Assembly: GCA_964448075.1 (NCBI GenBank) | Contig: CAYUUR010000001.1 | Location: 1,785-65,784, forward strand | DNA from: an uncultured Candidatus Saccharibacteria bacterium | Lineage (GTDB): Bacteria > Patescibacteriota > Saccharimonadia > Saccharimonadales > CAYUUR01 | Direction of reading: 5' to 3' | DNA length: 64,000 nt | In this document: positions 1,656 to 36,391 of the stretch, piece by piece | How positions within the stretch are numbered: position 1 is the stretch's first letter | Layout: each line of letters opens with the position of its first letter | Notes under the pieces: model-generated | The model's input: only the letters and a program-made list of their open reading frames with translations | Told to the model about the DNA's origin: nothing | Database searches by the model: none | Program-made: the position numbers and the translations under genes

Positions 1656-2795
1656 ATGAAAGTAGGGTTAGTCTGTCCGTATCATATTTTTCGTGGAGGT
1701 GGCGTCCAGGAATGCGTCTTTGCCATCCAGAAGGAGCTAACCTCACGTGGGCATACAGCCAAGATTATTACTCCCCTGCCTCGTGATGTAACAGATGAAG
1801 ACCGACATAATGAGTCGGTCGTTTTTGTTGGAACATCTGCCAATGTTAAGTCGCCCTTCCATACCACCGCGCAAGTTTCTGTAAGTCTAGACAGTAGTCA
1901 AATGAATACAATGCTCGAAGCAGAGCAATTTGATGTATTACATTTTCACGAGCCATGGGTACCAATCATGTCAAGACAGTTATTGACGCAATCAGGTGCC
2001 GTTAATGTTGCGACGTTTCACGCTAAGCTTCCAGAGACAGTTATGTCAAAGACTATCGAGAAAGTCATCACCCCGTATACCAAATCAGTTCTCAAATACA
2101 TTGATAGTTTCACTGCAGTTTCAGACGCAGCCGCCCAGTATGTCCGTACGGTGACTAATGAGCCGATTTCAATCGTTCCGAACGGTATTGATCTAAAGAA
2201 ATTCAAAGCTGTAAAAGCACGTCCTGTTTCGGATGCGCCTGTTTTAAGCTTCGTTGGACGACTCGAAAAGCGCAAGGGCGTGAAGTACCTCATCAAGGCG
2301 TTCGCACAATATCAAACCGTTAACTCAAAAGCCGAACTAAGGATTGCTGGTGATGGGCCTGACCGTGTCAAATTGGAGCAAATGGTGCACGATGAACGTA
2401 TACGTAATGTCACCTTCCTTGGCTATGTTTCTGATACCGAGAAGCAACAACTATTTGAGGAATCAGATCTGTTTTGCTCGCCGGCTTTATACGGCGAAAG
2501 TTTTGGGATTGTGCTCCTGGAAGCGATGGCAAAGGGATTAGTGACGATTGCCGGCGACAACCCAGGCTATGCTGCTGTAATGGACGGTCGTGGTGCTTTG
2601 TCGCTTGTCAATCCACAAGACACCGAACAGTTTGCACGGCGGATCCAAATTTTGCTTGAAGACGAAGCGACTCGTAAACTTTGGCGTTCATGGGCCCATG
2701 ATTACGTGAGACAGTTTGACTACCCGCTCATTGTTGAGCAGTACCTAAAAGTATATAAACAAGCCTTGGTTCATGAGAAGAAGCGACGTGGCTGA
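1656..2795 (+). CDS. glycosyltransferase family 4 (GT-B)
   Basis: 379 aa; C-terminal E-x7-E motif GESFGIVLLEAMAKG typical of GT4. Confidence 0.8.
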   Translation: MKVGLVCPYHIFRGGGVQECVFAIQKELTSRGHTAKIITPLPRDVTDEDRHNESVVFVGTSANVKSPFHTTAQVSVSLDSSQMNTMLEAEQFDVLHFHEPWVPIMSRQLLTQSGAVNVATFHAKLPETVMSKTIEKVITPYTKSVLKYIDSFTAVSDAAAQYVRTVTNEPISIVPNGIDLKKFKAVKARPVSDAPVLSFVGRLEKRKGVKYLIKAFAQYQTVNSKAELRIAGDGPDRVKLEQMVHDERIRNVTFLGYVSDTEKQQLFEESDLFCSPALYGESFGIVLLEAMAKGLVTIAGDNPGYAAVMDGRGALSLVNPQDTEQFARRIQILLEDEATRKLWRSWAHDYVRQFDYPLIVEQYLKVYKQALVHEKKRRG

Positions 2796-3936
2796 AAAGT
2801 TAAAGATAGCCTATGTCCTTGATGATAGTCTCGATGGTACAGACGGTGTACAGCAGTATGTTCTGACCGTATCTGATTGGATGACTGCACAGGGTCACGA
2901 GTGTCATTTTCTAACGGGGCATACGACCAGAACTGACATTGCAAACGTGCATAGTACTACCAAGGTTCTCAAGGTACGCTTCAACAAGAATAGAATGGCT
3001 ACTCCACTACCTGCAAACAAAAAACGCCTCAGCACACTTCTAAGAGACCAGAGGTTCGACATTGTGCACGTACAAATGCCCTATAGTCCACTTATGGCTG
3101 GACGACTACTGCGCGCCCTACCAGGTAGTACTGCGGCTGTAGGTACGTTCCACATTTTGCCATTTGGGCGCCTTCATACGAGTGCAAATCGGCTACTCGG
3201 TAAAGTGAATAGCCGAACACTGCAGCGATTTGACACCATAGTAGCTGTTTCGCCAGCCGCACAGGAGTTTGCCAAGCATGCCTATGGCGTAAACTCTGAA
3301 GTCTTGCCAAACGCTGTGAATATGCAGAAGTTTCTTACTAAAAAACCGATGCATAATCGGCCACGCAAACTGAGAATCGTTTTCTTAGGGCGACTCGTAG
3401 AGCGTAAAGGGGCGCAAGAACTGCTCACCGCCCTTGATTACCTGCAAACGCACGAACCTGCCTTTATGGCGTCGGTAGAGTGCGTAATGGTGGGCAAAGG
3501 TAAAGACCTGAGACGCCTGCGAAATTACGTATCGAGCCATCATCTAGACCATACGGTCAGCTTTGCTGGGTTTATTGACGAAGCAGGCAAGCCTGCCTTA
3601 CTTGCCAGTGCTGATCTTGCTGTATTCCCAAGTCTTGGCGGTGAAAGCTTTGGGATTGTGCTCATAGAAGCGATGGCAGCGGGTGCTGGTGTAGTGCTTG
3701 GTGGCGATAACCCAGGCTATCGTTCTGTTCTGGGCGAGCGTCCAGAGTTGCTCTGTGATCCGCAGCAGACGCAAGCATTTGCTGAACGCATCAAGCTCTT
3801 GCTCACCGACCAGGAACTTCACAATAGATTGCATGCCTGGCAAACAAGAAAAGTCCATCAATACGACATAGCACAAGTCGGGCCAAAACTGCTATCATAC
3901 TACCAAGCAGCGATAAAGCAGCATAAACGGGGGTAA
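2773..3936 (+). CDS. glycosyltransferase family 4 (GT-B), paralog of preceding gene
   Basis: 387 aa; GESFGIVLIEAMAAG motif; overlaps upstream GT4 by 23 nt, so probably co-translated. Confidence 0.8.
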   Translation: MRRSDVAEKLKIAYVLDDSLDGTDGVQQYVLTVSDWMTAQGHECHFLTGHTTRTDIANVHSTTKVLKVRFNKNRMATPLPANKKRLSTLLRDQRFDIVHVQMPYSPLMAGRLLRALPGSTAAVGTFHILPFGRLHTSANRLLGKVNSRTLQRFDTIVAVSPAAQEFAKHAYGVNSEVLPNAVNMQKFLTKKPMHNRPRKLRIVFLGRLVERKGAQELLTALDYLQTHEPAFMASVECVMVGKGKDLRRLRNYVSSHHLDHTVSFAGFIDEAGKPALLASADLAVFPSLGGESFGIVLIEAMAAGAGVVLGGDNPGYRSVLGERPELLCDPQQTQAFAERIKLLLTDQELHNRLHAWQTRKVHQYDIAQVGPKLLSYYQAAIKQHKRG

Positions 3937-26293: not shown

Positions 26294-26393
26294 CTATACG
26301 AGTTATGCAGTTCTGAGCCCGATCAAAATGTCACGCCATTTTGTCGGCGCGAAATATGGGGTCCCCACAAAATCAACGATTTTGAGGGGTGTC

Positions 26394-27962
26394 TTAGGGG
26401 AGTAGCTCAGTTGGTAGAGCACCGGTCTCCAAAACCGGGTGTCGCAGGTTCAAGTCCTGTCTCCCCTGCCATATAGAACTTTCAGTAAGTTTCAGCACAG
26501 TTGCAAACGGTTCGTTAGGTGTAAAACGGACCGTTTTGCCTTTCAGTGAGAGGTTCGATAGCACAATACTGATAATCTGCCGCTTTTCTTCATCGTTAGC
26601 AACTTCAAAGATTTTATCGCCGTGTTTGAATAGCTGTAACAGATACGAAGCTGTCGCATAGAAGTTTTGATCTGCGTCTTCTAGCCGTGCTAATTGACCG
26701 TCTATCCTTGCTATTTCTTGGTCGTACCGACCTTTGTTTTCGTTATAATCATCGGGAGTAATACTACCGCTAGTCATTGCATCAAAGGCAACACGAATAC
26801 GGTGCTTGTAGTCATCACGGTCAGTCCGTAGCTTTTTGAGCATATCGTCTTGGAAGCGGTTTTCGGCTTCGTGTGATGACTTTACTTCTGTTTCAAGACG
26901 AGCAATTTCATCGGCAGGTATGTTCTTGAAGGCTTTGAACACTGCCATAAACTGGGCGGTCAAATCAACTTGGGTTACATAAGTAATCTTCTTGTGTTTT
27001 TTTCGGGCATTGGTGCAATGATAGAAATGGTAGCTATGCTCATTTCCGTTCTTCTGTTTCTTTTCACGATATTCAGTCGTTACCGCACAGCCACAGTCTG
27101 CACAGGTTATCAGACCACGATAGATAAACGGTATGCCAATAAATCGCCGTTTACCTAGTCGGTTACCGTCTAGCACATCCTGGACCATTTCAAACAGCTC
27201 ACGACTGACGAGCTGTTGGTAAGTGTGTACATATTCTTTACCGCCACCTTTCTTATCAACGATTATACCGATATAAAACTTATCACGCAGTATGTCGTGA
27301 ACACGGCTTTTTGACAGATTAACCTTCAATTCTTCGGCTATCTTGCGGCGTAGACTTTCGCAAGAATACGCACCAGTCGCAAATAGCGTGAACATACGCT
27401 TAACTACTTCGCTGTTAAAAGCATCGGGCTGAACCGATTTTTGTCGTGTGCCTATGGTTACATTGTTGTAGCCGTATGGAGCACCCCACGGCAGTTCGCC
27501 CCGTTCTAGCTTGGATAGTTTGGTGTTCATACCATCTTCTTTGATGCGTTCAAGCTGCGACTTGGCAAACATTACTTTAAAGTCCCATTGGATAATTTCA
27601 TTTGATCGGCTTTCTTGCGACAACACAAGCCTATCATCAATAAAGTGCAGCTTTACTTTGTGTTTGGTGCGAAGCTCATCAATCAATACGCTGTCACGAA
27701 AGTTGCGTGTTATACGGTCTACCCGAAACGAAACAATATCTGTTACCTTGTTTTTCTTAGCAAAACTAACCATTTCCTGAAACTTATTGCGAGCCTTGTA
27801 CTCACTGCCAGTTTCACTAATTTTGAAAGTTTTGATGACATTCAAGCCGTTGGTTTTGGCGTATTCTTTTGCACGGGGTAGCTGTATTTCTTCTAGCGAC
27901 AAACCTTCTGTTTCTTGCCGCTTGGTGGATACACGGGCAAAAATGATGGTCTTGTTGCTCAT
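26394..27962 (-). CDS. large serine recombinase (integrase)
   Basis: 522 aa; resolvase catalytic domain (IIFARVSTKRQ, VDRITRN), recombinase domain, Cys-rich zinc ribbon (CADCGC...YHCTN), long coiled-coil region. The last 25 codons are antisense to tRNA-Trp. Confidence 0.88.
   Translation of the reverse strand: MSNKTIIFARVSTKRQETEGLSLEEIQLPRAKEYAKTNGLNVIKTFKISETGSEYKARNKFQEMVSFAKKNKVTDIVSFRVDRITRNFRDSVLIDELRTKHKVKLHFIDDRLVLSQESRSNEIIQWDFKVMFAKSQLERIKEDGMNTKLSKLERGELPWGAPYGYNNVTIGTRQKSVQPDAFNSEVVKRMFTLFATGAYSCESLRRKIAEELKVNLSKSRVHDILRDKFYIGIIVDKKGGGKEYVHTYQQLVSRELFEMVQDVLDGNRLGKRRFIGIPFIYRGLITCADCGCAVTTEYREKKQKNGNEHSYHFYHCTNARKKHKKITYVTQVDLTAQFMAVFKAFKNIPADEIARLETEVKSSHEAENRFQDDMLKKLRTDRDDYKHRIRVAFDAMTSGSITPDDYNENKGRYDQEIARIDGQLARLEDADQNFYATASYLLQLFKHGDKIFEVANDEEKRQIISIVLSNLSLKGKTVRFTPNEPFATVLKLTESSIWQGRQDLNLRHPVLETGALPTELLP
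26396..26471 (+). tRNA. tRNA-Trp (anticodon CCA), CCA end encoded
   Basis: Hand-folded cloverleaf: acceptor AGGGGAG/CTCCCCT, D arm GCTC/GAGC, anticodon arm CCGGT-CTCCAAA-ACCGG, T arm GCAGG-TTCAAGT-CCTGT, discriminator G, CCA. Confidence 0.9.
26450..26469 (+). repeat. attL core (TCAAGTCCTGTCTCCCCTGC)
   Basis: Identical 20-mer at 32983-33002; flanking bases differ on both sides. Confidence 0.85.
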
Positions 27963-28147
27963 ATATCAACCTTGCTGTCTTCTATCAGCTTATGAACATC
28001 ATCTATCTTGAAAAGGTACGACTTACCGACTTTGTAGGCGGTAATCTTGCCTGATTTTATCCATCTATAAATGGTTATTTTGCTAACTTGGAGCAATTCG
28101 CAAACATCTTCAATCTTGTAGAATTTGCTATCTTTCATACTTATCAT
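27959..28147 (-). CDS. excisionase-type helix-turn-helix DNA-binding protein
   Basis: 62 aa; YKIEDVCELLQVSKITIYRWIKSGKI resembles the Xis/AlpA (HTH_17) family; 4-nt overlap with the recombinase start. Confidence 0.6.
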   Translation of the reverse strand: MISMKDSKFYKIEDVCELLQVSKITIYRWIKSGKITAYKVGKSYLFKIDDVHKLIEDSKVDI

Positions 28148-28163
28148 TATATATCATTCCTTA

Positions 28164-29321
28164 TCACTTATCTAAATATCTTTGTAACTTTACAGGCTCA
28201 AACTTTTGTAACTGGCTTTCTATAATGTCAAAGCTGGCAATTTTTCGTCTAGCGAAGTTTAGGCTGTTTATCTTCTTGTTCAGGTTATACCATTGTTGGC
28301 TAGTGAAGTTACCGATATTACGGACATCACGGCTTCCTGTGGTTTCAAGCAATGTCTTATACGCAACAGCTTCCATAATCGTACCTATTTGCGTTCGTGG
28401 ATTTTGTATTGATAACTCAGTCAATAGTGCAGGTGCGGTTTTATCAGTCAGCGAGATAGCTGGATAGGTTTCACGCAGTTTGGTTATTTCGTACCGCAAC
28501 ATCTTCTTGGCGGTGGTTTCGTTGAACAGATCACGGAAAGTTAAACTATCAGTCTGTAAACCTGCATCTTTGAACGACTTTTTGATCTGTGGTCTACCAA
28601 TGTACCGTGCTTCAACACGCACCATTTCAAACGGACTGGCAAGCGGTTTTTCATCAAATAGTGATAGCTGGCAGTAATAGTCTTTTTCTAGCAAGCCTTT
28701 TTCGGTAACTTTAGACTTTGTGTGTTCTTTTAGCTTGTCATAGATACACAAGCCCCACTTACTGCTGTAAAAGTGCATTGCTTCGCCGTTGTTGATGTAC
28801 TTTTGCCCGTCACTTTTCTTGCGTGTCGTATAGTTGCATTTTTCTAAGTCGGTTATGATGGCGTGAGCAGTTGAATAGTCGGTCAGCGTTATGTTTTTAG
28901 AATAGTGTATGGTGCTGACCATTGCGTCTTTAAGCGTGTTCGGACCAGTAACTACCACGCCGATATTGTGTAGTTTGCGTTGTAGCTGGACGCACAGGTA
29001 ATCAAAATCGCTTTGCGTTATTTCATTAAAATTGTCGTTATGAACGACCTTTTGTGCAGAAAACTCAATGTTGAGAGTGATGGGTACGCCACCACGGCGT
29101 ACTGCCTTAATAAGCGTCAGGCGGGGTATATAGTTGCCGTCAGCCTTTTCTTTGGCGGTTGGGTTGCGTTCTACCAAAAAAGCCTTCTTTGTGCCGAACT
29201 GAACAAATGGCGGTCTAAAGAAATTGGTTACATCTGTCGCAAACTGTTTGTAGCAACCTTCCATCAGCTCAAAGTCTTTACGCCATTCTAGCGTTATTAC
29301 TACTGTATCTACCATTTTCAT
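28164..29321 (-). CDS. putative rolling-circle replication initiator (Rep_trans / phage gpII-like)
   Basis: 385 aa. N-terminal MVDTVVITLEW and the motif GLCIYDKLKEH resemble the xRIYDKxxE box I recall from this family. From memory only. Confidence 0.35.
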   Translation of the reverse strand: MKMVDTVVITLEWRKDFELMEGCYKQFATDVTNFFRPPFVQFGTKKAFLVERNPTAKEKADGNYIPRLTLIKAVRRGGVPITLNIEFSAQKVVHNDNFNEITQSDFDYLCVQLQRKLHNIGVVVTGPNTLKDAMVSTIHYSKNITLTDYSTAHAIITDLEKCNYTTRKKSDGQKYINNGEAMHFYSSKWGLCIYDKLKEHTKSKVTEKGLLEKDYYCQLSLFDEKPLASPFEMVRVEARYIGRPQIKKSFKDAGLQTDSLTFRDLFNETTAKKMLRYEITKLRETYPAISLTDKTAPALLTELSIQNPRTQIGTIMEAVAYKTLLETTGSRDVRNIGNFTSQQWYNLNKKINSLNFARRKIASFDIIESQLQKFEPVKLQRYLDK

Positions 29322-29583
29322 TGCTCACTACTTCTTCAAACTTTATTGCTACTGCTTCTTCTATGGCTAAGCCCACCTGTTTGTTGATGGGATAGTACAC
29401 ATCAATGTCCTTGCCAATCATCTTGCGTGTTGGGTACACAAGCCTATAACCGCCATTCGGTCTGGTAAACACACCGACTGAACCGCAGTAGATGGCTTCG
29501 TACAGCACAAAGCTGGCAAAGCCAACCAAGCCGTTATTGGCTTTGACTGGCACTATCTGCACTTCGCTGATCGCTTTCATCAT
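29278..29583 (-). CDS. SpoVG-like nucleic-acid-binding protein
   Basis: 101 aa; aligns by eye with B. subtilis SpoVG (VxxVxx...G..GFASFVL...VYPTRK...YYPIN vs AIASITL...AMPSKR...THPIN). Confidence 0.55.
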   Translation of the reverse strand: MMKAISEVQIVPVKANNGLVGFASFVLYEAIYCGSVGVFTRPNGGYRLVYPTRKMIGKDIDVYYPINKQVGLAIEEAVAIKFEEVVSNENGRYSSNNARMA

Positions 29584-29713
29584 CTACATCGCCTTCCTGT
29601 AATTTTTCAATTACTTTTTCCCGTTGATCTATCTTGATCAGCAATTTAGTCAGCAAAAGCATAGGGTCGGGATTGGCGACCTGTTCGTCTTGTTTCTTTG
29701 GTTGCTTGATCAT
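29534..29713 (-). CDS. possible 59-aa protein
   Basis: Own translation MIKQPKKQDEQVANPDPMLLLTKLLIKIDQREKVIEKLQEGDVDDES...; overlaps the SpoVG-like start by 50 nt; below ORF-track cutoff. Confidence 0.25.
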   Translation of the reverse strand: MIKQPKKQDEQVANPDPMLLLTKLLIKIDQREKVIEKLQEGDVDDESDQRSADSASQSQ

Positions 29714-29743
29714 ACCCCGATGGTATGAAAAAGCTATTTAGCC

Positions 29744-30565
29744 TTATTTTGGCTGTTTTTTGGGCGGAGCAATATATTTTGGGTTAAGCCGAACTGATTT
29801 TGTAGTGAGTTTGAATAAATCAGGTATATCTGTGTATTTTTCTACACGGGCATTTATCTTCTTGATAGCGTCATACACCTTATTCCAGTCAGTCGGCTTT
29901 TGTAAGTCAGGTAAATAGTCGTATAGGCTGTCCCAGGCTTGCTGCAAGTCTTTAAGCTGCCAAAGTTCGTGCGGCTTTTCAAATATCAGCTTGCAGATAG
30001 CTGGTTGATATTCTGCATTCTTCTTAAAGCGTATGGCTTCGTCAGCGAAGAATATGGTGCGTTTGTCGGCATCGTAGCTGGCTGGTTCGGTGGTAGTAGA
30101 TTTGGCTGGTAATATGTGTTCACTACTTTCTTCATAGTCAAAAATGATACGCCGAAGTTCAGCTACACGGTCACTAAAATCATCAAGTATATCTTCTAGT
30201 TTCTGCTCATTTTTGGTCAGTTCGTTTATTGATAAATGCCTAGCACCTACCGTATGAGGGTCGCTGAATTGCATTTTATAGCGTGTCTTGCCAATCCTAT
30301 CCAGCACAGCTTCAACATCCTTTATCCAACCTTCTACGAACTGCTGGGCTGCCCGTAAAACTTCTATAGTTTTTTCGTGTTCTGGTTCTGGTTCAGGGTA
30401 TCCAAATGTAGGAATACCAAACGGACCAGTCTTTACTATCTGTGGCGTGGACATTATATGAGGCATTCTGGTTGGCACTAGGGACGCATTTAACTTGCTA
30501 AAGTCATTGCTAACCTTATTACCTTCTTCATACAGTTTTACCAGTTCAGCTACATCGTCTTTCAT
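29744..30565 (-). CDS. hypothetical protein (273 aa), element-encoded
   Basis: Long ORF in the element backbone; C-terminal third might be a winged-helix domain (guess). Confidence 0.5.
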   Translation of the reverse strand: MKDDVAELVKLYEEGNKVSNDFSKLNASLVPTRMPHIMSTPQIVKTGPFGIPTFGYPEPEPEHEKTIEVLRAAQQFVEGWIKDVEAVLDRIGKTRYKMQFSDPHTVGARHLSINELTKNEQKLEDILDDFSDRVAELRRIIFDYEESSEHILPAKSTTTEPASYDADKRTIFFADEAIRFKKNAEYQPAICKLIFEKPHELWQLKDLQQAWDSLYDYLPDLQKPTDWNKVYDAIKKINARVEKYTDIPDLFKLTTKSVRLNPKYIAPPKKQPK

Positions 30566-30654
30566 ACACCTTCAAATCCTGCTTTTATTATACAAAATGA
30601 TGATTGCGTTTGATAACGATTGATAAGTTATTCGTGGTAAGATTGTAAGAAGTT

Positions 30655-31605
30655 ATGTCATTAAAATCACCACAAAATAGCTTAAAGAATGCCTACGGTA
30701 CATTTTTGTTCAAAGACGGTGGTTACCTTCCAGGCATACTGCTAATAGCCCATAAGCTTCGTGAGCTTAGCGATGGGGATACTAAGCTTATATGTCTTCA
30801 CACAAACGATGTTGAGCAGTCTGTACTTGAAGCCATTGCCACAATTTATGATGAAGTGCAGTCTGTTGAACATCTTAGATTTGGTCAAAATCGGGTCGGT
30901 AGGCAAACGCCTTTGCCATTTATGTTCACCCGCTTTCGTTTTTTGCAGCTCAAACATATAGATAAGGTTTTGGTTTTTGACGCAGATATGCTGCCACTGG
31001 CTGACTATGATGGTCTATTTGAGTTGGACGCACCAGCAGGTGTAATCAATGAGAGTAAAGAAAATATGAAGGGTGACAATCATACCGCCGAAAAGTTAGA
31101 TAAATGGGAATGGCATAAGAAATATGAGCCACTGTACGGACACGGCAAGCTGTTGCCAAAAGATATGACTGATAAACCAATCTTACAGCCTGAACAAAAT
31201 ATGGGTATAAATGGTGGTCTAATGCTATTGCAGCCATCGGAAGCTGACTTTGAAGCTTTTTCTAGCTGGTGTAAACAGCCCGACAATCAGGCTGCCATTG
31301 AGAAAATGCCTTGGCCTGATATGCAAGCAGTCACGGCTTTTTATTCTGGGAAATGGATAAATATAGACGCAAAGTATTTGGGTTTATATGGTTATCCAAA
31401 CATATCATCGTTAAATGGTATTCATTTCATAGGACCAAAGCCTTGGCAATGGCGAGCCAAAGGTTTTGCATATCGCTTAAATAACTATCCTGACTATAAG
31501 CTATGGGCAGATGAGTATTTGAAGATGTGTGAACAGCGACCCGAATTACTTAAATACAAGCAGCTTGCAAACTTGAAGCAGCAAATAGAAGCTGAAATTA
31601 AATAG
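30655..31605 (+). CDS. glycosyltransferase family 8 (glycogenin/LgtC-like), element cargo
   Basis: 316 aa; N-terminal AYGTFLF..GYLPG, DxD motif VFDADML, GT8-like C-terminal region. Confidence 0.65.
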   Translation: MSLKSPQNSLKNAYGTFLFKDGGYLPGILLIAHKLRELSDGDTKLICLHTNDVEQSVLEAIATIYDEVQSVEHLRFGQNRVGRQTPLPFMFTRFRFLQLKHIDKVLVFDADMLPLADYDGLFELDAPAGVINESKENMKGDNHTAEKLDKWEWHKKYEPLYGHGKLLPKDMTDKPILQPEQNMGINGGLMLLQPSEADFEAFSSWCKQPDNQAAIEKMPWPDMQAVTAFYSGKWINIDAKYLGLYGYPNISSLNGIHFIGPKPWQWRAKGFAYRLNNYPDYKLWADEYLKMCEQRPELLKYKQLANLKQQIEAEIK

Positions 31606-31695
31606 TAAAAAACGCTTGGTATTTTTACAGCCGTAAAAATTCGGCATTGATACGGCGGAGTACCTACAACAGATATAAAGGGTGACCACCCCCCC

Positions 31696-32646
31696 CTAGG
31701 TTACTTCTTTCGGTACTCCTTCATAAAAAGGTAGTAAATCTTCCAAATACTCTTTACGGGTGGCATAGGCATAGTCTTTAGACCACCGAACAAGCAGTAG
31801 GTTACTTTGAACTATCATTTCGTCATCTGTTATTGCGTGTCTTTTTTGTTTCTTACCAGATTTTATTGGGTCTATAAGCTCAATAAGTATTTCGGGTGTT
31901 AGGGCAAGATAGTGCCTTCTTTGGGCGATGTGATTGCTGTACATCTTTTCAACCATCGTTTTGCCAGTTTTGTTGAACACTTCAACCACTGGTGTATCAG
32001 TGGTTATGAATTTTTTTGAGCCTTTGGCTAAATAAAACCGCCATTTCTTTATCGAAAACCATCTGTAAAACTCTTCGCATTTGGCAATAAGTTGTAAATG
32101 ATTAACGTTGTTATCAAAATCTAGTTCGTATTCGCCACTTTCAAGGGTCTTTCTAGCGTCTTCAATCTGTTCATCAGTTACCTTATACCCTTTTTCTGCC
32201 AAAGCTTCTTTAGCACCATCTGTAAAGTTCGGGTGCGAAGCCATTAGCGTAGTCATTTGCTTCATACCATCAGCCATAGTCTTGTTCACCTGTCTTCGCA
32301 TATGTGGACTTCTAATCCATAAAGAAGCCATAAACCACGCCAGAATATCTAGCTGATGGTCAGTTAGTAGTCTGTAACTCCATATTGCATCAACTATATT
32401 GTTATATTCTTTGGCAAACTTATCTTCAATTTCACCGAAGAATTGTTCAAACACTTGGCTGGTTTCATCTTCTTTGCCAGTTTCAACAGCGTAATAGAAG
32501 TCGGCATAACAAACACCACTATACGGCTGTGCCTTTATGATTTCCCCTTTTTTAATATCTAAAGTCTGTAACATATTATCAACTGCAAATCGCTTGAAGT
32601 AAAAACGGGGTGCGAAATGTTGCTTCTTAGTGATCTGTTTTGTCAT
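31696..32646 (-). CDS. DUF4238-like protein, element cargo
   Basis: 316 aa; N-terminal KKQHFAPRFYFKRFA resembles the H-x-x-P-x-F-Y-L-x-x-F start I associate with DUF4238 (from memory). Confidence 0.45.
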   Translation of the reverse strand: MTKQITKKQHFAPRFYFKRFAVDNMLQTLDIKKGEIIKAQPYSGVCYADFYYAVETGKEDETSQVFEQFFGEIEDKFAKEYNNIVDAIWSYRLLTDHQLDILAWFMASLWIRSPHMRRQVNKTMADGMKQMTTLMASHPNFTDGAKEALAEKGYKVTDEQIEDARKTLESGEYELDFDNNVNHLQLIAKCEEFYRWFSIKKWRFYLAKGSKKFITTDTPVVEVFNKTGKTMVEKMYSNHIAQRRHYLALTPEILIELIDPIKSGKKQKRHAITDDEMIVQSNLLLVRWSKDYAYATRKEYLEDLLPFYEGVPKEVT

Positions 32647-32780
32647 ACTGCTATTTTACAGCCGCATAAGTCATAAGCACAGGTGTATAGCCGTGTCGGT
32701 CTAGTATTGGTTTAAGTATTTCGGATATAATTTCAAAAGGCAGTTCGGGGTTACATATTGCGTCCTTTAGGGGCTGCCAA

Positions 32781-32812
32781 AATAAAAGGATCCCGTCTGG
32801 GGTCCTTTTATT
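32781..32812. other. 14-bp perfect/G-U hairpin (terminator- or ssDNA-origin-like) near the right end of the element
   Basis: AATAAAAGGATCCC-GTCT-GGGGTCCTTTTATT; A/T runs on both sides. Confidence 0.5.
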
Positions 32813-32982
32813 TTGTTGGTGAGCCAAGACTCGGTTCTGCGTCGTAGATTTTGCTTTAGCAAAAGATACTTGTCGCTGGTGCATTCGTGAAGTGCTGCGC
32901 ACAGAAACTTGTTTCGAGCACAGCACAATACGGCCACGGGCTGACTGTCTCCTGGAAATAGGGACAATTGCCAGCGCACTAG

Positions 32983-33002
32983 TCAAGTCCTGTCTCCCCT
33001 GC
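32983..33002 (+). repeat. attR core (TCAAGTCCTGTCTCCCCTGC), partial tRNA-Trp 3' end
   Basis: Identical to 26450-26469; followed by TT instead of CA. Confidence 0.85.
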
Positions 33003-33031
33003 TTCGCAAAATCCTGTTAAACTAAAAAACA

Positions 33032-33592
33032 ATGAATCAACTCCCAACATTTATAACTGGAAATCAGAACAAGGCTGATTACCTTTCTAGGCAGCTTGGA
33101 TTTGACCTTGATCATCAAAAAATTGAGCTTGATGAACTCCAGTCAACAGACTTGCATGTGATTGTTGAGCACAAGTTACGTCAGGCTTATGAAGTTTGCG
33201 TAAAGCCCGTGCTTGTCGAAGATGTAAGTCTTGTTTTTAATGCACTCAATGACTTACCAGGACCGTATATCAGATGGTTCGTTGATCACGCCGGCGATGA
33301 AGCCTGCTGTCGGATGCTTGATGGTTTTGATGACCGTAGTGCAGTTATTCGCTGCACGTTTGGTTATTATGATGGAGACGCTATAGAGTTCTTCGATAGT
33401 GAGCTGCCTGGTACGATATCCGACACACCCCGTGGGAGTAATGGTTTCGGGTTTGATAGGTTCTTTATAAACGAAGGTTACACAATAACGCGTGCTGAAA
33501 TGACACAAGAAGAAAACGAACGAACCTACGCAGAACTAATGAAGCCATTTGCGCAAGTGCGTAGTTTTCTGCAATCACAAAGTAACGAGTAA
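33032..33592 (+). CDS. rdgB: non-canonical purine NTP pyrophosphatase (RdgB/HAM1 family)
   Basis: 186 aa; FITGNQNK start and C-terminal GFGFD motif. Confidence 0.8.
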   Translation: MNQLPTFITGNQNKADYLSRQLGFDLDHQKIELDELQSTDLHVIVEHKLRQAYEVCVKPVLVEDVSLVFNALNDLPGPYIRWFVDHAGDEACCRMLDGFDDRSAVIRCTFGYYDGDAIEFFDSELPGTISDTPRGSNGFGFDRFFINEGYTITRAEMTQEENERTYAELMKPFAQVRSFLQSQSNE

Positions 33593-33597
33593 ATAGC

Positions 33598-33630
33598 AAA
33601 AGCCCGCAGAGTAAATCTACGGGCTTTGTT
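33598..33630. terminator. bidirectional terminator between rdgB and rpf
   Basis: 8-bp stem AAAGCCCG/CGGGCTTT between convergent genes. Confidence 0.6.
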
Positions 33631-33649
33631 TACGTCTTTAGCATAGACG

Positions 33650-34285
33650 CTATCTCAAACCGAGTTTTGCGCTACATGCTGGCCAGTGACCCCAGCCGCC
33701 GCTACCTTTAAGCATTTCAGCGCGACGGATTTGCTCTGCCTTGCTTGCTTGGTGTGGATAGCCGCTGCCGCCAACTCCGCGCCAACTACTCAAGCTAAAC
33801 TGCAGGCCTCCGTAGTAACCGTTGCCAGTGTTAATTGACCAGTTACCGCCTGATTCACAGGCAGCGAGCCTATCCCACGCACTTCCAGTGCTCGCAGTAA
33901 CTTTTGGCGCAACATAAGCTTTGCGTGGTGTATTGCGAACAGTTGTTTTTGGTGACTGTACTGGCGTTGATGCTGGAACAACTGCATCACTCGGCAATTC
34001 TCGCCGTTTAAGTTTTTCCGACTTACTTGGAATGCGGATTTTGTCACCTGGATAGATGAGATCCGGGTGCTTTATCTTTTTGTTAGCGTAGAACAGTCGT
34101 TCGTATGTTGAACGATGTTTTTTGGCGATAATCGATAAGCTATCGCCTGGCTTAACCGTAACAACCTTTTTGGTTTCTACGGGCTTTGGTTTCTGATTTG
34201 ATTCCTGTGCATGCACAGATGAGCCGCTGGACGTCAAGATAATTGCGCCCAAAAACAGACCCACTATTGTTGCGATTACTCGCAT
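33650..34285 (-). CDS. secreted LysM + Rpf (resuscitation-promoting factor-like transglycosylase) protein
   Basis: Start set at ATG 34283-34285 (SD AGGGAGG; signal/TM MRVIATIVGLFLGAIIL). LysM (VKPGDSLSIIAKK...YPGDKIRIP) and Rpf domain (WDRLAACESGGNWSINTGNGYYGGLQF). Confidence 0.85.
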   Translation of the reverse strand: MRVIATIVGLFLGAIILTSSGSSVHAQESNQKPKPVETKKVVTVKPGDSLSIIAKKHRSTYERLFYANKKIKHPDLIYPGDKIRIPSKSEKLKRRELPSDAVVPASTPVQSPKTTVRNTPRKAYVAPKVTASTGSAWDRLAACESGGNWSINTGNGYYGGLQFSLSSWRGVGGSGYPHQASKAEQIRRAEMLKGSGGWGHWPACSAKLGLR

Positions 34286-34464
34286 AGTAGCCTCCCTTAT
34301 ACCCTGTTGTAATGTACCCTTATTGCTATTTAAAAGTTTCGCAGCCGACGCCGCGTGGGTCATTTAGGTAAGTATCTTTTCCACCTCACGAGTAAAAAAG
34401 ACACAATGACTAGCCTACTACACCCACATGTAGTGTCAAGCCCCTTACGCCTAACCATATAACT

Positions 34465-34494
34465 AAAAAGCTCCATAACAGATGTCATGGAGCT
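34465..34494 (-). terminator. intrinsic terminator after rpmG
   Basis: Stem AGCTCCAT/ATGGAGCT followed by U5 on the minus strand. Confidence 0.65.
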
Positions 34495-34515
34495 TTATGC
34501 GCAGTAATGTAATAT

Positions 34516-34713
34516 TTACTTTGTTACTTGATTTCGGCCAAGATTTTTCTTGGTTTCTGTATACCAAGTATGCTTTCGCAACACTGGATTATACTTTTTC
34601 AGACGCAGTTTGTCTGGAGTATTCATAGTGTTTTTCTTGGTGTAGTAGTGTCGGTGACCCGTCTCTTCACACACTAGACCAATTACTTTGCGTTTATCGC
34701 CTTTTTTTGCCAT
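34516..34713 (-). CDS. rpmG: 50S ribosomal protein L33
   Basis: 65 aa; KVIGLVCEETGHRHYYTKKN...LRLKKYNPVLRKHTWYTETK matches the L33 pattern. Confidence 0.9.
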   Translation of the reverse strand: MAKKGDKRKVIGLVCEETGHRHYYTKKNTMNTPDKLRLKKYNPVLRKHTWYTETKKNLGRNQVTK

Positions 34714-34919
34714 TATTTCTTCACCTCACTTTTCTTTGGAATGATGATTGCAAGTACAACATAGGCTACAACACCTGGGAATAGTCCAGTGATAACTGTA
34801 CCGAGCGCCCATCCAGCACGTACGAGTGTTGGATCAACGTCAAAATACTCAGCAATACCCGCACATACACCGTCGAGTTTGCGATCATCTTCTGATTTGT
34901 ATAGTATCTTCTTTGCCAT
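34713..34919 (-). CDS. PspC-domain membrane protein
   Basis: 68 aa; LYKSEDDRKLDGVCAGIAEYFDVDPTLVR plus one TM segment. Confidence 0.8.
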   Translation of the reverse strand: MAKKILYKSEDDRKLDGVCAGIAEYFDVDPTLVRAGWALGTVITGLFPGVVAYVVLAIIIPKKSEVKK

Positions 34920-34955
34920 TTACAACATTCTAACAGATTATAGTTGATATTTCAA

Positions 34956-35032
34956 TGGAGCCGTTGTAATCTTCGATTTCACCTGGCCTCCTTGGAAAAT
35001 ACGAGCAAACACGGTTGTTCAGTATTGTCCTC
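34956..35032 (-). repeat. tRNA-Thr-trailing structured unit u' (ends in a copy of the tRNA-Thr(GGU) acceptor 3' strand)
   Basis: Minus-sense GAGGACAATAC-TGAACAACCGTGTTTGCTC-GTATTTTCC-AAGGAGGCC..AATC-GAA-GATT-ACAACGGCTCCA; the last 12 nt match the tRNA 3' end at 35033-35044. Confidence 0.6.
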
Positions 35033-35107
<75 letters not shown>

Positions 35108-35137
35108 ACATTCAGTGGACTATGATAGCATTTTTAG

Positions 35138-35521
35138 CTATTTTCTGAAAGCTCTCTCTGAAGGTAGTTTCAGAGTATACAAGGGTGCAATCTCCTCGAC
35201 AACTGCCGCCTGCTCAACAATAAGCCAAGGCTTAACAGTGCTGGTTAATCCCCGCCGGACAATACTAAAGTATCTACTGTCTTCATCGGACATTTCGGTT
35301 ATTAATGGCTCAAAAAGCATTTCTGCGTCATCTGCACCGAGTCTTAGGTATTCAGCTGGCTGTGAATGTACGAAACACACCAATCTGCCTAAAGCATGCT
35401 CTTTATCCTGGGCAACTATAGTAAAGTCGACAGCTCGAACATCATCCTCGACCCTGCCCCAATACCATTTCTCGCGTTCATCCATTATATATACAGTAGA
35501 ACGGTTCACCATGCTTAACAA
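35138..35521 (-). CDS. hypothetical acidic protein (about 115-127 aa) between tRNA genes
   Basis: ORF-track start is TTG; ATG candidates at 35512 and 35485; no SD; no recognisable domain. Confidence 0.4.
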   Translation of the reverse strand: MLSMVNRSTVYIMDEREKWYWGRVEDDVRAVDFTIVAQDKEHALGRLVCFVHSQPAEYLRLGADDAEMLFEPLITEMSDEDSRYFSIVRRGLTSTVKPWLIVEQAAVVEEIAPLYTLKLPSERAFRK

Positions 35522-35679
35522 CTATAAACACCAATATTCTGTTGTAATTTCAATCTCGACAGTGTTGGATGAAAACACTTCCGTGGTTTTTTGAAAAAGT
35601 AAGAATTCGCTTAACAGATAAAAAGACCTCCGATGAGGCCTTAATTCAGTATGGTGCAGCATCATGGCTGAGATCAGAC

Positions 35680-35907
35680 CTATTTTAGACCTGAGCCCGC
35701 AGCACAGGTTGAGCCAATGACTTTACAGGACATTTCGCTTTTATGAGGATTTCTCACATATACTTCTGTCAGTTCACACTCTTGAACGCCGCCACATGTC
35801 ACGACAAGCTCGTCAGCTCCATCTCTTGTCATAAATTCTTCTACCGCTGGGTCGCAATTCCTATAGATAAGACAGTTATCCCATTCGATTGTCTCTTGCG
35901 TTCTCAT
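35680..35907 (-). CDS. hypothetical Cys-rich small protein (75 aa) between tRNA genes
   Basis: First ATG at 35905-35907. An extended -10-like TGATATACT ends about 7 nt upstream, so possibly leaderless. Confidence 0.35.
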   Translation of the reverse strand: MRTQETIEWDNCLIYRNCDPAVEEFMTRDGADELVVTCGGVQECELTEVYVRNPHKSEMSCKVIGSTCAAGSGLK

Positions 35908-35927
35908 TAGCAAAGTATATCAAATCT

Positions 35928-35951
35928 AAAAGACTTCCGAAGAAGTCTTTT
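35928..35951 (-). terminator. intrinsic terminator after tRNA-Tyr
   Basis: Perfect 10-bp stem AAAAGACTTC/GAAGTCTTTT with a 4-nt loop, 15 nt after the tRNA 3' end. Confidence 0.7.
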
Positions 35952-35965
35952 GAGCATAAGCGATT

Positions 35966-36051
35966 TGGTGCAGGGAGAGGGATTCGAACCCCCGAAGGCA
36001 TAAGCCAGCAGATTTACAGTCTGCCGTGTTTGACCGCTTCACTACCCCTGC
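35966..36051 (-). tRNA. tRNA-Tyr (anticodon GUA), long variable arm, CCA encoded
   Basis: Hand fold: anticodon arm GCAGA-CTGTAAA-TCTGC, long extra arm, T loop TTCGAAT. Confidence 0.88.
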
Positions 36052-36158
36052 ATATGAAGGAGCCGGAGCTCCTTCTTTGTTAAAACACTTCTTGAAACTA
36101 CACTCACATTGTAATCTCTTTTGATTAGGATTCCTCGCAATGGTCCTAATCAACTCAA

Positions 36159-36237
36159 TTCTGGAGCCGCCTGTAGCCTTCGGCTTCATCCGGCTTCCTC
36201 GAAAACATATTGCCAGCAAGCTGTCATATGTTTTCTG
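36159..36237 (-). repeat. tRNA-Thr-trailing structured unit u1
   Basis: Minus-sense GAAAACATAT-GACAGCTTGCTGGCA-ATATGTTTTC-GAGGAAGCC..AGCC-GAA-GGCT-ACAGGCGGCTCCA; the last 13 nt match the 3' end of tRNA-Thr(UGU). Confidence 0.6.
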
Positions 36238-36314
36238 TTGAGCCGCCTGTAACCCTTTGGGATGCAGTTGCTCCCTCAGAAAGTTCAAGCCAGCAAGCTG
36301 TCAGAACTTTCTTC
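36238..36314 (-). repeat. tRNA-Thr-trailing structured unit u2
   Basis: Minus-sense AGAAAGTTC-TGACAGCTTGCTGGCTT-GAACTTTCT-GAGGGAGCA..CCC-AAA-GGG-TTACAGGCGGCTCA; directly abuts the tRNA-Thr(UGU) 3' end. Confidence 0.6.
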
Positions 36315-36391
36315 TGGAGCCGCCTGTCGGATTCGAACCGACGACCTACGGTTTACAAAACCGTCGCTCTAACCAACTGAGCTAAGGCGGC
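36315..36391 (-). tRNA. tRNA-Thr (anticodon UGU), CCA encoded
   Basis: Hand fold: GCCGCCT acceptor, anticodon arm ACGGT-TTTGTAA-ACCGT, T arm GTCGG-TTCGAAT-CCGAC. Confidence 0.9.

Follow-up and report, generated by a model that had tools for sequence, protein, structure and literature searches.

The 64,000-nucleotide (nt) stretch of DNA analysed in this study (the window) comes from an uncultured Candidatus Saccharibacteria bacterium (assembly GCA_964448075.1, contig CAYUUR010000001.1, positions 1,785 to 65,784) and carries, directly behind a tRNA-Trp gene, a segment at window positions 26472-32779 that is very probably a small, plasmid-like mobile element of Saccharibacteria in its integrated form, next to which an older insertion scar would explain a 20-bp repeat. 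The mobile unit measures 6,308 bp, counting one copy of a 6-bp core, CTGCCA, that is found at both of its ends. Sequence comparison indicates that the element is a member of a widespread and not previously described family of integrative plasmids of the Candidate Phyla Radiation (CPR), which combine a replication protein (Rep) with a large serine recombinase (LSR), appear to target the 3′ ends of tRNA genes and carry the attachment site of the circle (attP) within the LSR gene.

Element boundaries and the empty allele

The boundaries were defined by comparison with an empty-site contig (L085), a syntenic locus in a sister species (L006), circular relatives (including L086 and L001) and an integrated sibling element (L005). 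The features that bear on them are as follows, with attB, attL and attR denoting the empty site and the left and right junctions of the integrated element.

26396-26471, plus strand: tRNA-Trp(CCA), the integration target (ARAGORN; Rfam RF00005, 71.3 bits)
26466-26471, plus strand: attL core CTGCCA (the overlap of both flanks in L085 is exactly 6 bp; BLAST similarity to circle L086 stops at 26466)
32774-32779, plus strand: attR core CTGCCA, the true distal end (the L085 alignment begins at 32774; similarity to L086, L005 and L001 stops at 32779-32784)
32780-32982, no strand: 203-bp spacer, host-locus DNA outside the mobile element (100% in L085, 87% in sister species L006)
32983-33002, plus strand: distal copy of a 20-mer, read as a displaced CCA-less tRNA-Trp 3′ fragment and not an att site of the present element (kept in the empty allele L085; not intact in L006)
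26394-27962, minus strand: LSR, integrated isoform, 522 amino acids (aa) (Pfam Resolvase/Recombinase/Zn_ribbon_recom; PHROG integrase, 1e-52; AlphaFold2 fold of a sibling; geometry of the open reading frame, ORF)
32651-32779, minus strand: detached 3′ segment of the LSR gene (homologous to the C-termini of the circle-form LSRs P0006, P0003, P0126 and P0132; tail hidden Markov model, HMM)

The empty-site contig was found through the exact rdgB protein, which is encoded in the right flank (Ham1/rdgB by Pfam), and comes from a different sequencing run. Its allele is 99.87% identical to the window, and a single CTGCCA joins window position 26471 to 32780: nt 1-30 of L085 correspond to window 26442-26471 and nt 25-2341 to window 32774-35090 (3 mismatches), the two alignments overlapping by CTGCCA. 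In this allele AAATAAAAGGATCCCGTCTGGGGTCCTTTTATTTT (a hairpin) adjoins the tRNA directly and opens the 203-bp spacer; beyond the spacer lie the distal 20-mer and then rdgB. The tRNA-Trp gene is intact in the occupied as well as the empty allele, its 3′ end being present on L085. The contig starts exactly 30 nt ahead of the first base that differs between attB and attL, a distance equal to k-1 in Logan assemblies, and the Logan circles L096 and L097 likewise have a 30-nt terminal overlap; the start is probably the signature of a graph branch, with both alleles present in that sample.

Across the core, attB reads tccc-CTGCCA-aaat (tRNA-CCA, then AAATAAAAGG), attP gggg-CTGCCA-tata (GGGGCTGCCATATAGAAC), attL tccc-CTGCCA-tata (CCA, then TATAGAAC) and attR gggg-CTGCCA-aaat (GGGG/CTGCCA/AAAT), with only 6 bp in common. 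The attL core covers tRNA positions 71-76 (end of the acceptor stem, discriminator G73 and CCA) and corresponds in antisense to LSR codons W498-Q499. A distance of 203 bp separates the inner junction (32774-32779) from the distal 20-mer, and the G+C content is about 0.38-0.44 inside the element and 0.45-0.50 outside. The attP and attB sites of serine integrases are normally short, with a few bp shared around a 2-bp crossover. An att identity of 6 bp is normal for such an enzyme, and the apparent paradox of a long core vanishes. The preliminary description of this locus had credited a serine integrase with a long identity block, which was not borne out; the paradox arose because the boundary had been drawn at the older scar.

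That description had correctly located tRNA-Trp(CCA) and the 20-mer, TCAAGTCCTGTCTCCCCTGC, of which the window contains exactly two copies (26450-26469 and 32983-33002). Outside the shared 20 bp the flanks of the copies are unrelated, and no third copy was found in the window when up to 3 mismatches were allowed (chance expectation 0.01). The 20-mers had been taken as the ends of a 6,533-bp element with a long, tyrosine-like identity block that converted a CCA-less tRNA into a CCA-encoding one. The repeat is perfect and statistically significant, and circularization at the 20-mers leaves the LSR frame open for 614 codons, but CCA is already encoded in the empty allele, which also keeps the spacer and the distal 20-mer. 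Three independent circles, as well as L005, cease to be homologous to the window at the inner CTGCCA junctions, and the sister species has the spacer and no intact 20-mer. We therefore consider an element of this extent highly improbable, and there is very little to expect of the outer attP that it implies, which would read ...GCGCACTAG-20mer-CATATAGAAC (CATATAG after the 20-mer). A small self-contained element at the 3′ end of tRNA-Trp stands, with CTGCCA ends and a length of 6,308 bp. The contrast between CTGC-CA and CTGC-TT at the two copies reads as originally reported but was not caused by the present element. An empty allele likewise exists, in L085, although the predicted form, with the tRNA followed directly by TTCGCAAAATCC, was not found: neither the spacer nor TTCGCAAAATCC occurred at the 80 loci read among at least 120 metagenome matches to the 23-mer tRNA end, which is a widespread tRNA-Trp 3′ end across many phyla, so that these matches carry no information on how the scar arose.

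The 614-aa read-through LSR was examined as a candidate protein and rejected. Its extension lacks homologues and crosses a terminator hairpin, and there is no record of the exact protein. Its frame (32651-32986 joined to 26470-27962, minus strand) re-enters the LSR tail described below in frame after 68 unrelated codons that include the hairpin, and is probably open by chance (roughly 1-4%).

Because the spacer and the distal 20-mer remain in the empty allele, they are a property of the host locus. In the simplest reading they form an older insertion scar that predates the present element; the earlier insertion would have displaced a CCA-less tRNA-Trp 3′ end (...CTGC/TTCG) and supplied CCA and a terminator. 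The scar is located at nt 31-253 of L085, with a counterpart at about 5636-5808 of L006, and comprises 223 bp, namely the 203-bp spacer and the displaced tRNA-Trp 3′ fragment, a perfect 20-bp repeat. The spacer has been seen only in this species (L084 and L085) and in the sister species. It opens at 32780-32814 with a hairpin of 15-bp stem followed by a T-run (fold -25.7 kcal/mol, z -4.3), which appears to be the tRNA-Trp terminator of the empty allele, as it occupies the usual terminator position, as at many unrelated tRNA-Trp loci. Rfam gave no match at E up to 1 that would identify the spacer as a non-coding RNA. A second partial copy of the acceptor strand, CTGTCTCC within gaCTGTCTCCtgg, lies at about 32944-32951, 30 bp inward of the 20-mer, and L006 is missing the ~38 bp that separate the two acceptor-strand copies. 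These partial copies suggest that past insertions occurred repeatedly at tRNA-Trp. A tRNA cluster (Thr-GGT, Tyr-GTA and Thr-TGT) is present on the minus strand at window 35033-36391, 2-3 kb to the right of the element, and none of its members is recombinase-associated.

Circular relatives and tRNA targeting

Close relatives of the element were assembled as circles. The LSR homologue P0006 was identified on two 6,472-bp MEGAHIT contigs from different samples, which are identical once rotated and have a 141-bp terminal overlap equal to k; these represent a 6,331-bp circle in 2 assemblies (L001/L002). P0126 (533 aa), a member of the 90%-identity cluster of the window LSR, is encoded on 12 contigs, and the 9 that were checked (L086-L092, L094 and L095) represent one 8,589-bp circle after rotation, with 0 mismatches. 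Terminal overlaps of the P0126 contigs (127, 119, 78 and 77) track the assembler k. P0132 (535 aa) is carried by an 8,527-bp circle recovered in two Logan assemblies (L096/L097). The LSRs of these sibling circles are 77-97% identical to that of the window, and in all circles the LSR ORF reads across the junction, in L086 as ...agttctata TGGCAG cccctaaaggacgcaatatgtaacccc.... The attP of L086 consists of the attL arm of the window (40/40 nt), TGGCAG and the attR arm of the window (from 32773 downward), and BLAST similarity between the window and L086 stops exactly at 26466 and 32779. The circular junctions sought by the preliminary description thus exist in siblings, at CTGCCA.

Several points weigh against the mobility of the window copy itself. 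No circular form of the exact copy was found, and its 539-aa LSR isoform is absent from a collection of 15 billion proteins. The attP 32-mer is absent from IMG/VR, and look-ups of the GT8 and DUF4238 cargo genes returned integrated contigs only. A circular assembly shows that the junction exists, which by itself is no proof of autonomous replication. The copy could in principle be a fixed, vertically inherited and immobile relic whose polymorphism stems from one old deletion; in L006, too, a related element and the spacer are found at this tRNA-Trp, and conservation of the element proteins (74-94% identity) exceeds that of the host flanks (55-100%) only moderately. However, the empty allele is base-precise at CTGCCA within its nearly identical background, the ORFs, among them the detached tail segment, have all stayed intact, the nearest relative of the window LSR is that of a free circle (97%) and not that of L006 (92%), and the cargo differs, GT8 being absent from L006. 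We regard the relic as unlikely and retain the reading of a mobile element.

The family scan, with one genome per species, gave 79 loci, 47 of which align over nearly the whole LSR (29-97% identity). These are mostly from Saccharibacteria and also from Nomurabacteria, Paceibacterota, Peribacteria/Peregrinibacteria and Dependentiae. An antisense tRNA is located at the 3′ end of the LSR gene in 36 of the 47 loci (Trp 9, Gln 17, Asn 9 and Arg 1), and the last, invariant Trp codon is the antisense CCA in 28 of these 36. In a tRNA-Gln sub-group (L024, L027-L033 and L047) the antisense CCA (TGG) is out of the LSR frame, and the ORF ends ...NGWG* a few codons into the tRNA. Since the gene immediately upstream of the LSR is Rep in 36 of 38 family loci, and a SpoVG-like gene occurs in 32 of 38, these loci represent one coherent element family.

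LSRs at least 90% identical to that of the window are joined to at least six different tRNA-Trp antisense tails. Together with the sibling element L005, whose LSR is 97% identical and which is found at a non-tRNA site, this is direct evidence of horizontal movement. L005 (6430-11498 of CAZTQB010000001.1) is ~5.06 kb long, and its cargo slot is unfilled. Family LSRs beside tRNA-Asn or tRNA-Gln were also observed in bins labelled Pseudomonadales/Gammaproteobacteria and, in one case, Oscillospiraceae (L040, L043, L044, L045 and L007); either these are mis-binned CPR contigs or the host range is wider. More distant LSRs, 24-27% identical, occur beside the same tRNA-Trp 3′ end on soil metagenome contigs (L142, about 1974-3552; L102, about 634-1554), which hints that tRNA-end targeting by LSRs extends past the analysed family. 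In the literature on serine integrases at tRNA genes and on integrative plasmids of Saccharibacteria and other CPR bacteria, of which our coverage was incomplete, no description of this family was found.

An alignment of 16 attP and 13 attB sites revealed that the right arm of attB is the antisense acceptor and T-arm (TGGCaG GGG.g...gGA.TcGAACc), and its left arm is without conservation. The right arm of attP resembles the tRNA arm (g.C.T.AAGGAC.tAAT.c.cAACCC); GGA(C) is at the same offset in attP and attB, and AACC lies about 6 bp further out in attP. It is reportedly typical of LSR sites that the zinc-ribbon motif lies further out in attP than in attB, as Rutherford and colleagues are said to have found in 2013 for the LI integrase. 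A GTTC/GGAC dyad is centred on positions 5-6 of TGGCAG (AG in the sense of the recombinase; tRNA positions 71-72), and the junctions of a degenerate copy, L038, differ at position 4 (TGGTAG vs TGGCAG), which fits a centre at tRNA 71-72. The exchange is probably bounded to the 6-bp core, with a crossover at tRNA 71-72; a point to be set against this position is that it derives from dyad geometry and from one copy, L038, that is possibly mutated. Perfect dyad symmetry of attP was considered and rejected, as there is only the weak GTTC/GGAC pairing and the left P arm has direct, not inverted, CTGAAA(G/C) repeats. The site of L005 shares only TGGCAG with attP and represents a natural secondary site that bounds the crossover region. 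The side of the element would always re-supply G73-CCA, which would explain the invariance of TGGC and the unaffected tRNA.

The split recombinase gene

By domain, motif and fold tests the enzyme appears to be a bona fide large serine integrase. Pfam identified Resolvase (6e-14), Recombinase (4e-9) and Zn_ribbon_recom (1e-6) domains. The catalytic residues A9, R10, V11, S12, T13, R15 and Q16 together with R80, D82, R83, T85 and R86 are invariant in homologues down to 38% identity, and the zinc-ribbon residues C287, C290 and C316 are also invariant among homologues. The AlphaFold2 model of the sibling P0006 (mean confidence score, pLDDT, 80.7) has the full LSR architecture, in which helices 350-397 and 403-454 are predicted to form the coiled-coil hairpin inserted into the zinc ribbon. 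Foldseek gave full-length matches to complexes of the PhiC31, Bxb1 and LI integrases (E 4e-20 to 6e-13), and every one of the best matches is a complex of an LSR with DNA. Solved LSRs share only ~15% sequence identity with the enzyme, and by sequence the catalytic domain alone matches PDB entries. No tyrosine integrase is encoded in the element according to Pfam.

Residues 1-498 of the window LSR are encoded by the element, and the last 24 aa (QGRQDLNLRHPVLETGALPTELLP) are an antisense translation of the tRNA, which the ORF traverses entirely; W498 is encoded by TGG, the reverse complement of the CCA in the tRNA gene. Once the element is integrated, transcription of the backbone operon would cross tRNA-Trp in antisense (26394-26471), with possible interference with expression of the tRNA, and a terminator-like minus-strand hairpin is present at 26331-26352, just past the 5′ end of the tRNA.

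Homologues recovered from a search of 5.8 billion proteins share the C-terminus ...PFATVLKLSERSxWQG and diverge afterwards. Some carry other tRNA-antisense peptides, and P0003 and P0006 carry a peptide, LKDALCNPELPFELISE..RHG, whose homologue in the window is the terminal part of a 111-codon ORF in the distal portion of the element (32651-32986, minus strand). The detached segment encodes (W)QPLKDAICNPELPFEIISEILKPILDRHGYTPVLMTYAAVK* and is in frame with W498 only in the circular form; the circularized window element is predicted to produce a 539-aa enzyme ending ...SSIW-QPLKDAICNPELPFEIISEILKPILDRHGYTPVLMTYAAVK. The attP site lies inside the LSR ORF, circle-form enzymes of 533-535 aa read across it, and the first ~30 bp of the detached segment double as the P′ arm of attP.

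A search for distal ends by direct repeats (at least 11 bp) mostly failed, the true cores being 6-11 bp, and was replaced by the tail HMM. With this model the tail was found at the distal end of 12 further integrated elements, on the LSR strand (targets Trp, Gln, Asn and non-tRNA; LSRs 43-97% identical to that of the window). In all 13 mapped elements it begins in frame at the junction TGGC[AT][GC], with a junction identity of 6-11 bp, and its consensus is W[QL]G[FL][KRQ][DN]LI.NP....FN.E..K..LE[RK]HG. At the level of sequence, these comparisons show that integration would swap a conserved tail of ~40 aa, present in a circle enzyme of ~533-539 aa, for tRNA-antisense residues (24 aa here).

These observations may be combined into the following course of events. 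The circle would express the backbone operon, composed of overlapping genes behind a promoter-like site (30616-30587), including the full-length LSR. The LSR would synapse attP with the tRNA-Trp 3′ end and perform the usual 2-bp staggered exchange inside CTGCCA, most likely at tRNA 71-72, and may read the antisense acceptor and T-arm (GGG....GGA.TCGAACC) as the B′ half-site, attP carrying a putative mimic of that arm. Relatives could have been retargeted to tRNA-Gln, tRNA-Asn and tRNA-Arg, since the T-arm and CCA are universal. Integration would detach the segment that codes for the tail, and the resident copy would produce a tail-less LSR with a tRNA-encoded peptide. By analogy with IntP/IntX of phage Mx8, the switch between isoforms might bias the reaction, the full-length form favouring integration and the tail-less form stable maintenance or excision dependent on a recombination directionality factor (RDF). 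Excision would need the HTH_17 protein encoded next to the LSR as directionality factor, and the excised circle would be replicated by the Phage_CRI Rep in rolling-circle mode.

In its broadest form, this scheme would have a CPR-wide LSR clade read universal features of tRNAs (the antisense T-arm and G73-CCA) as attB and hop between tRNA species, with the attP inside the ORF serving as a state sensor: the circle would encode a full-length, integration-competent enzyme, and the integrated copy a tail-less one with altered directionality or stability. We offer this only tentatively and consider it rather doubtful as a whole. If true, Saccharibacteria/Patescibacteria would have in these elements their first natural integrative plasmids, and the fully defined attP/attB pairs would offer ready-made parts for genetic tools.

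The two parts of the tail differ in their conservation. Codons 1-10 are invariant among close relatives even synonymously, consistent with a second role as the P′ half-site, whereas in codons 11-34 synonymous differences outnumber non-synonymous ones (6:3, 11:5, 9:5 and similar), indicating that this part of the peptide is probably under purifying selection. The ORF across attP might instead have no regulatory meaning, with residues 1-498 being fully functional, the tail kept as P′ DNA or as a marginal folding aid, and directionality set only by the coiled coil and an RDF. The constraint on the first 10 codons acts on DNA that coincides with the conserved attP arm, so that tail conservation is partly not at the protein level, and this speaks for such a reading. 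So does the AlphaFold2 model of P0006, in which the att-encoded residues 495-502 form a flexible linker of low confidence, after which come two short helices (pLDDT 55-68); confidence in the tail is low to moderate (pLDDT 40-68), and its function is proposed by analogy. Furthermore, integrated copies with arbitrary tails of 2-35 aa retain intact ORFs, and one sub-group reads the junction in a different frame. On the other side, codons 11-34 lie 30-100 bp from the crossover, past a typical LSR half-site, and yet have the synonymous excess; the motif ...FN.E..K..LE[RK]HG persists down to 43% LSR identity and across tRNA targets; and the frame is kept across the junction in 13 of 13 mapped elements and in all circles. 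An ORF without regulatory meaning is a serious possibility, although somewhat short of an even chance.

Gene content and comparison with known systems

Besides the LSR, the element encodes the following backbone and cargo genes.

27959-28147, minus strand: 62-aa HTH_17/excisionase-like protein, overlapping the LSR start by 4 nt (Pfam HTH_17, 3e-15; PHROG excisionase families)
28164-29321, minus strand: rolling-circle Rep of the Phage_CRI/G2P family, 385 aa (Pfam PF05144, E 4e-7, 30.5 bits vs a cut-off of 21.7; PHROG replication protein)
29278-29583, minus strand: 101-aa SpoVG-like protein, backbone (Pfam SpoVG, 5e-5, below gathering score)
29534-29713, minus strand: 59-aa ORF, backbone in close relatives (called in L084 and L096; 74-88% identical in L005, L006 and L086)
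29744-30565, minus strand: 273-aa backbone protein, first gene of the backbone operon (all circles and 12 of 38 loci)
30655-31605, plus strand: cargo GT8 glycosyltransferase, 316 aa (Pfam PF01501)
31696-32646, minus strand: cargo DUF4238 protein, 316 aa (Pfam PF14022, 8e-30)

Pfam agrees with the gene calls of the preliminary description (large serine recombinase, Xis-type helix-turn-helix, Rep-like, SpoVG-like, GT8 and DUF4238-like), that of SpoVG being weak. The HTH_17 gene adjoins the LSR in all close relatives, and its product is a candidate RDF; against this, HTH_17 turned up at no more than 13 of the 38 family loci. The SpoVG-like gene precedes Rep, and a promoter scan placed the promoter-like site ahead of the 273-aa gene. 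No family match was obtained for the 59-aa ORF in Pfam, nor for the 273-aa protein in Pfam, PHROG or PADLOC.

The backbone (SpoVG-like protein, rolling-circle Rep and LSR) is conserved and the cargo is variable. The cargo slot, flanked by the 273-aa gene and the tail segment, is filled by GT8 and DUF4238 here, and by a methyltransferase with a SNF2/ResIII helicase or by membrane/SHOCT proteins in siblings. GT8 is specific to the window copy, being absent from L006, L086, L005 and L001; DUF4238 is shared with L006 at 90% and absent from the circles. PADLOC gave no match to anti-phage defence for GT8, DUF4238, the 273-aa protein, the SpoVG-like protein or Rep. The slots of L086 (2998-7025) and L096 (229-1950 and 6459-8555) contain an N6/N4 DNA methyltransferase and a 766-aa ResIII/SWI2-SNF2 helicase, a combination that resembles a restriction-modification or defence-like module, carried here by a Saccharibacteria plasmid.

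As previously noted for this locus, no conjugation or virion genes were found in the element by Pfam, PHROG and a check of short ORFs. This bears on whether the element could be an integrated inovirus-like filamentous phage, analogous to Ralstonia phiRSM. Its Phage_CRI/G2P Rep, the 6.3-8.6 kb size of the circles and several ORFs without assigned function would suit such a phage, and phiRSM1/phiRSM3 offer a precedent: a circle with a G2P-type Rep and a serine recombinase, integrated at a tRNA-Ser 3′ end with a 13-bp core (PMC4471427). The likeness extends to a small circular replicon with this type of Rep and a serine recombinase at a tRNA 3′ end. However, phiRSM has the M13-like structural and assembly genes of a true inovirus, and no such genes were detected here; no Zot/pI ATPase, coat or adsorption family was found in the window element or circle L001 (Pfam/PHROG, E up to 1), and the short hydrophobic ORFs of the window element are only antisense shadows within annotated genes. 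IMG/VR has essentially one family member, and the variable slot holds cellular-type cargo (a glycosyltransferase; a methyltransferase and helicase). The phiRSM integrase is also a small enzyme of resolvase/invertase type without recombinase and zinc-ribbon domains, and its attP is located between genes, orf14 and orf15 (PMC4471427). An inovirus is accordingly an improbable identity for the element, and a plasmid-like nature is preferred.

Large serine integrases are main tools of genome engineering and are considered not to act on tRNA genes. An LSR clade that acts on tRNA genes and has all four att sites defined provides a natural experiment in att specificity and retargeting (Trp, Gln, Asn and Arg), and state-specific isoforms arising from an attP inside the ORF suggest an extra, testable layer of directionality control. 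To our knowledge, almost no plasmids or integrative vectors have been described for CPR/Patescibacteria. A 6-9-kb backbone of Rep and integrase with a tolerant cargo slot, occurring both free and integrated, may serve as a starting point for genetic tools in Saccharibacteria.

The enzyme resembles the PhiC31, Bxb1, A118/LI and TP901-1 integrases in its domain order (catalytic domain, alpha-E helix, recombinase domain and zinc ribbon with inserted coiled coil) and, like PhiC31-type integrases, has a short attP/attB identity (6 bp here) and a small adjacent DNA-binding protein that could be a directionality factor. It differs from them in the tRNA 3′-end targets across the clade, in the attP within the LSR ORF and in its carrier, a 6-9-kb Rep plasmid-like element of CPR bacteria instead of a phage or an integrative and conjugative element (ICE). 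The use of tRNA genes by large serine integrases was stated to be unreported by Mageeney et al. 2020 (PMC7192596). Similar to pSAM2-type actinomycete ICEs and streptococcal integrative mobilizable elements, the element combines a rolling-circle Rep with Xis and Int, and it belongs to a family seen both as circles and integrated at tRNA 3′ ends, with variable cargo (PMC2440964). The pSAM2-type elements use tyrosine integrases and long tRNA identity blocks and have FtsK-like transfer genes, whereas no transfer or mobilization gene is recognizable in the element described here, and its host is a CPR episymbiont.

With respect to the attP within its own gene, we know of no other serine recombinase, and none was found in the literature, our coverage of which was incomplete. 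The closest parallels are Mx8 (IntP/IntX) and SSV1, in which integration into a tRNA gene recombines inside the integrase gene, so that the C-terminus differs in the prophage (Mx8) or the gene is split (SSV1) (PMC6070905, PMC4383910). All of these have attP within the integrase ORF, and integration alters the protein. The enzymes of Mx8 and SSV1 are, however, tyrosine recombinases of unrelated fold and mechanism, whereas in the Saccharibacteria element only the last ~40 of ~535 residues are swapped and the catalytic and DNA-binding domains are left intact.

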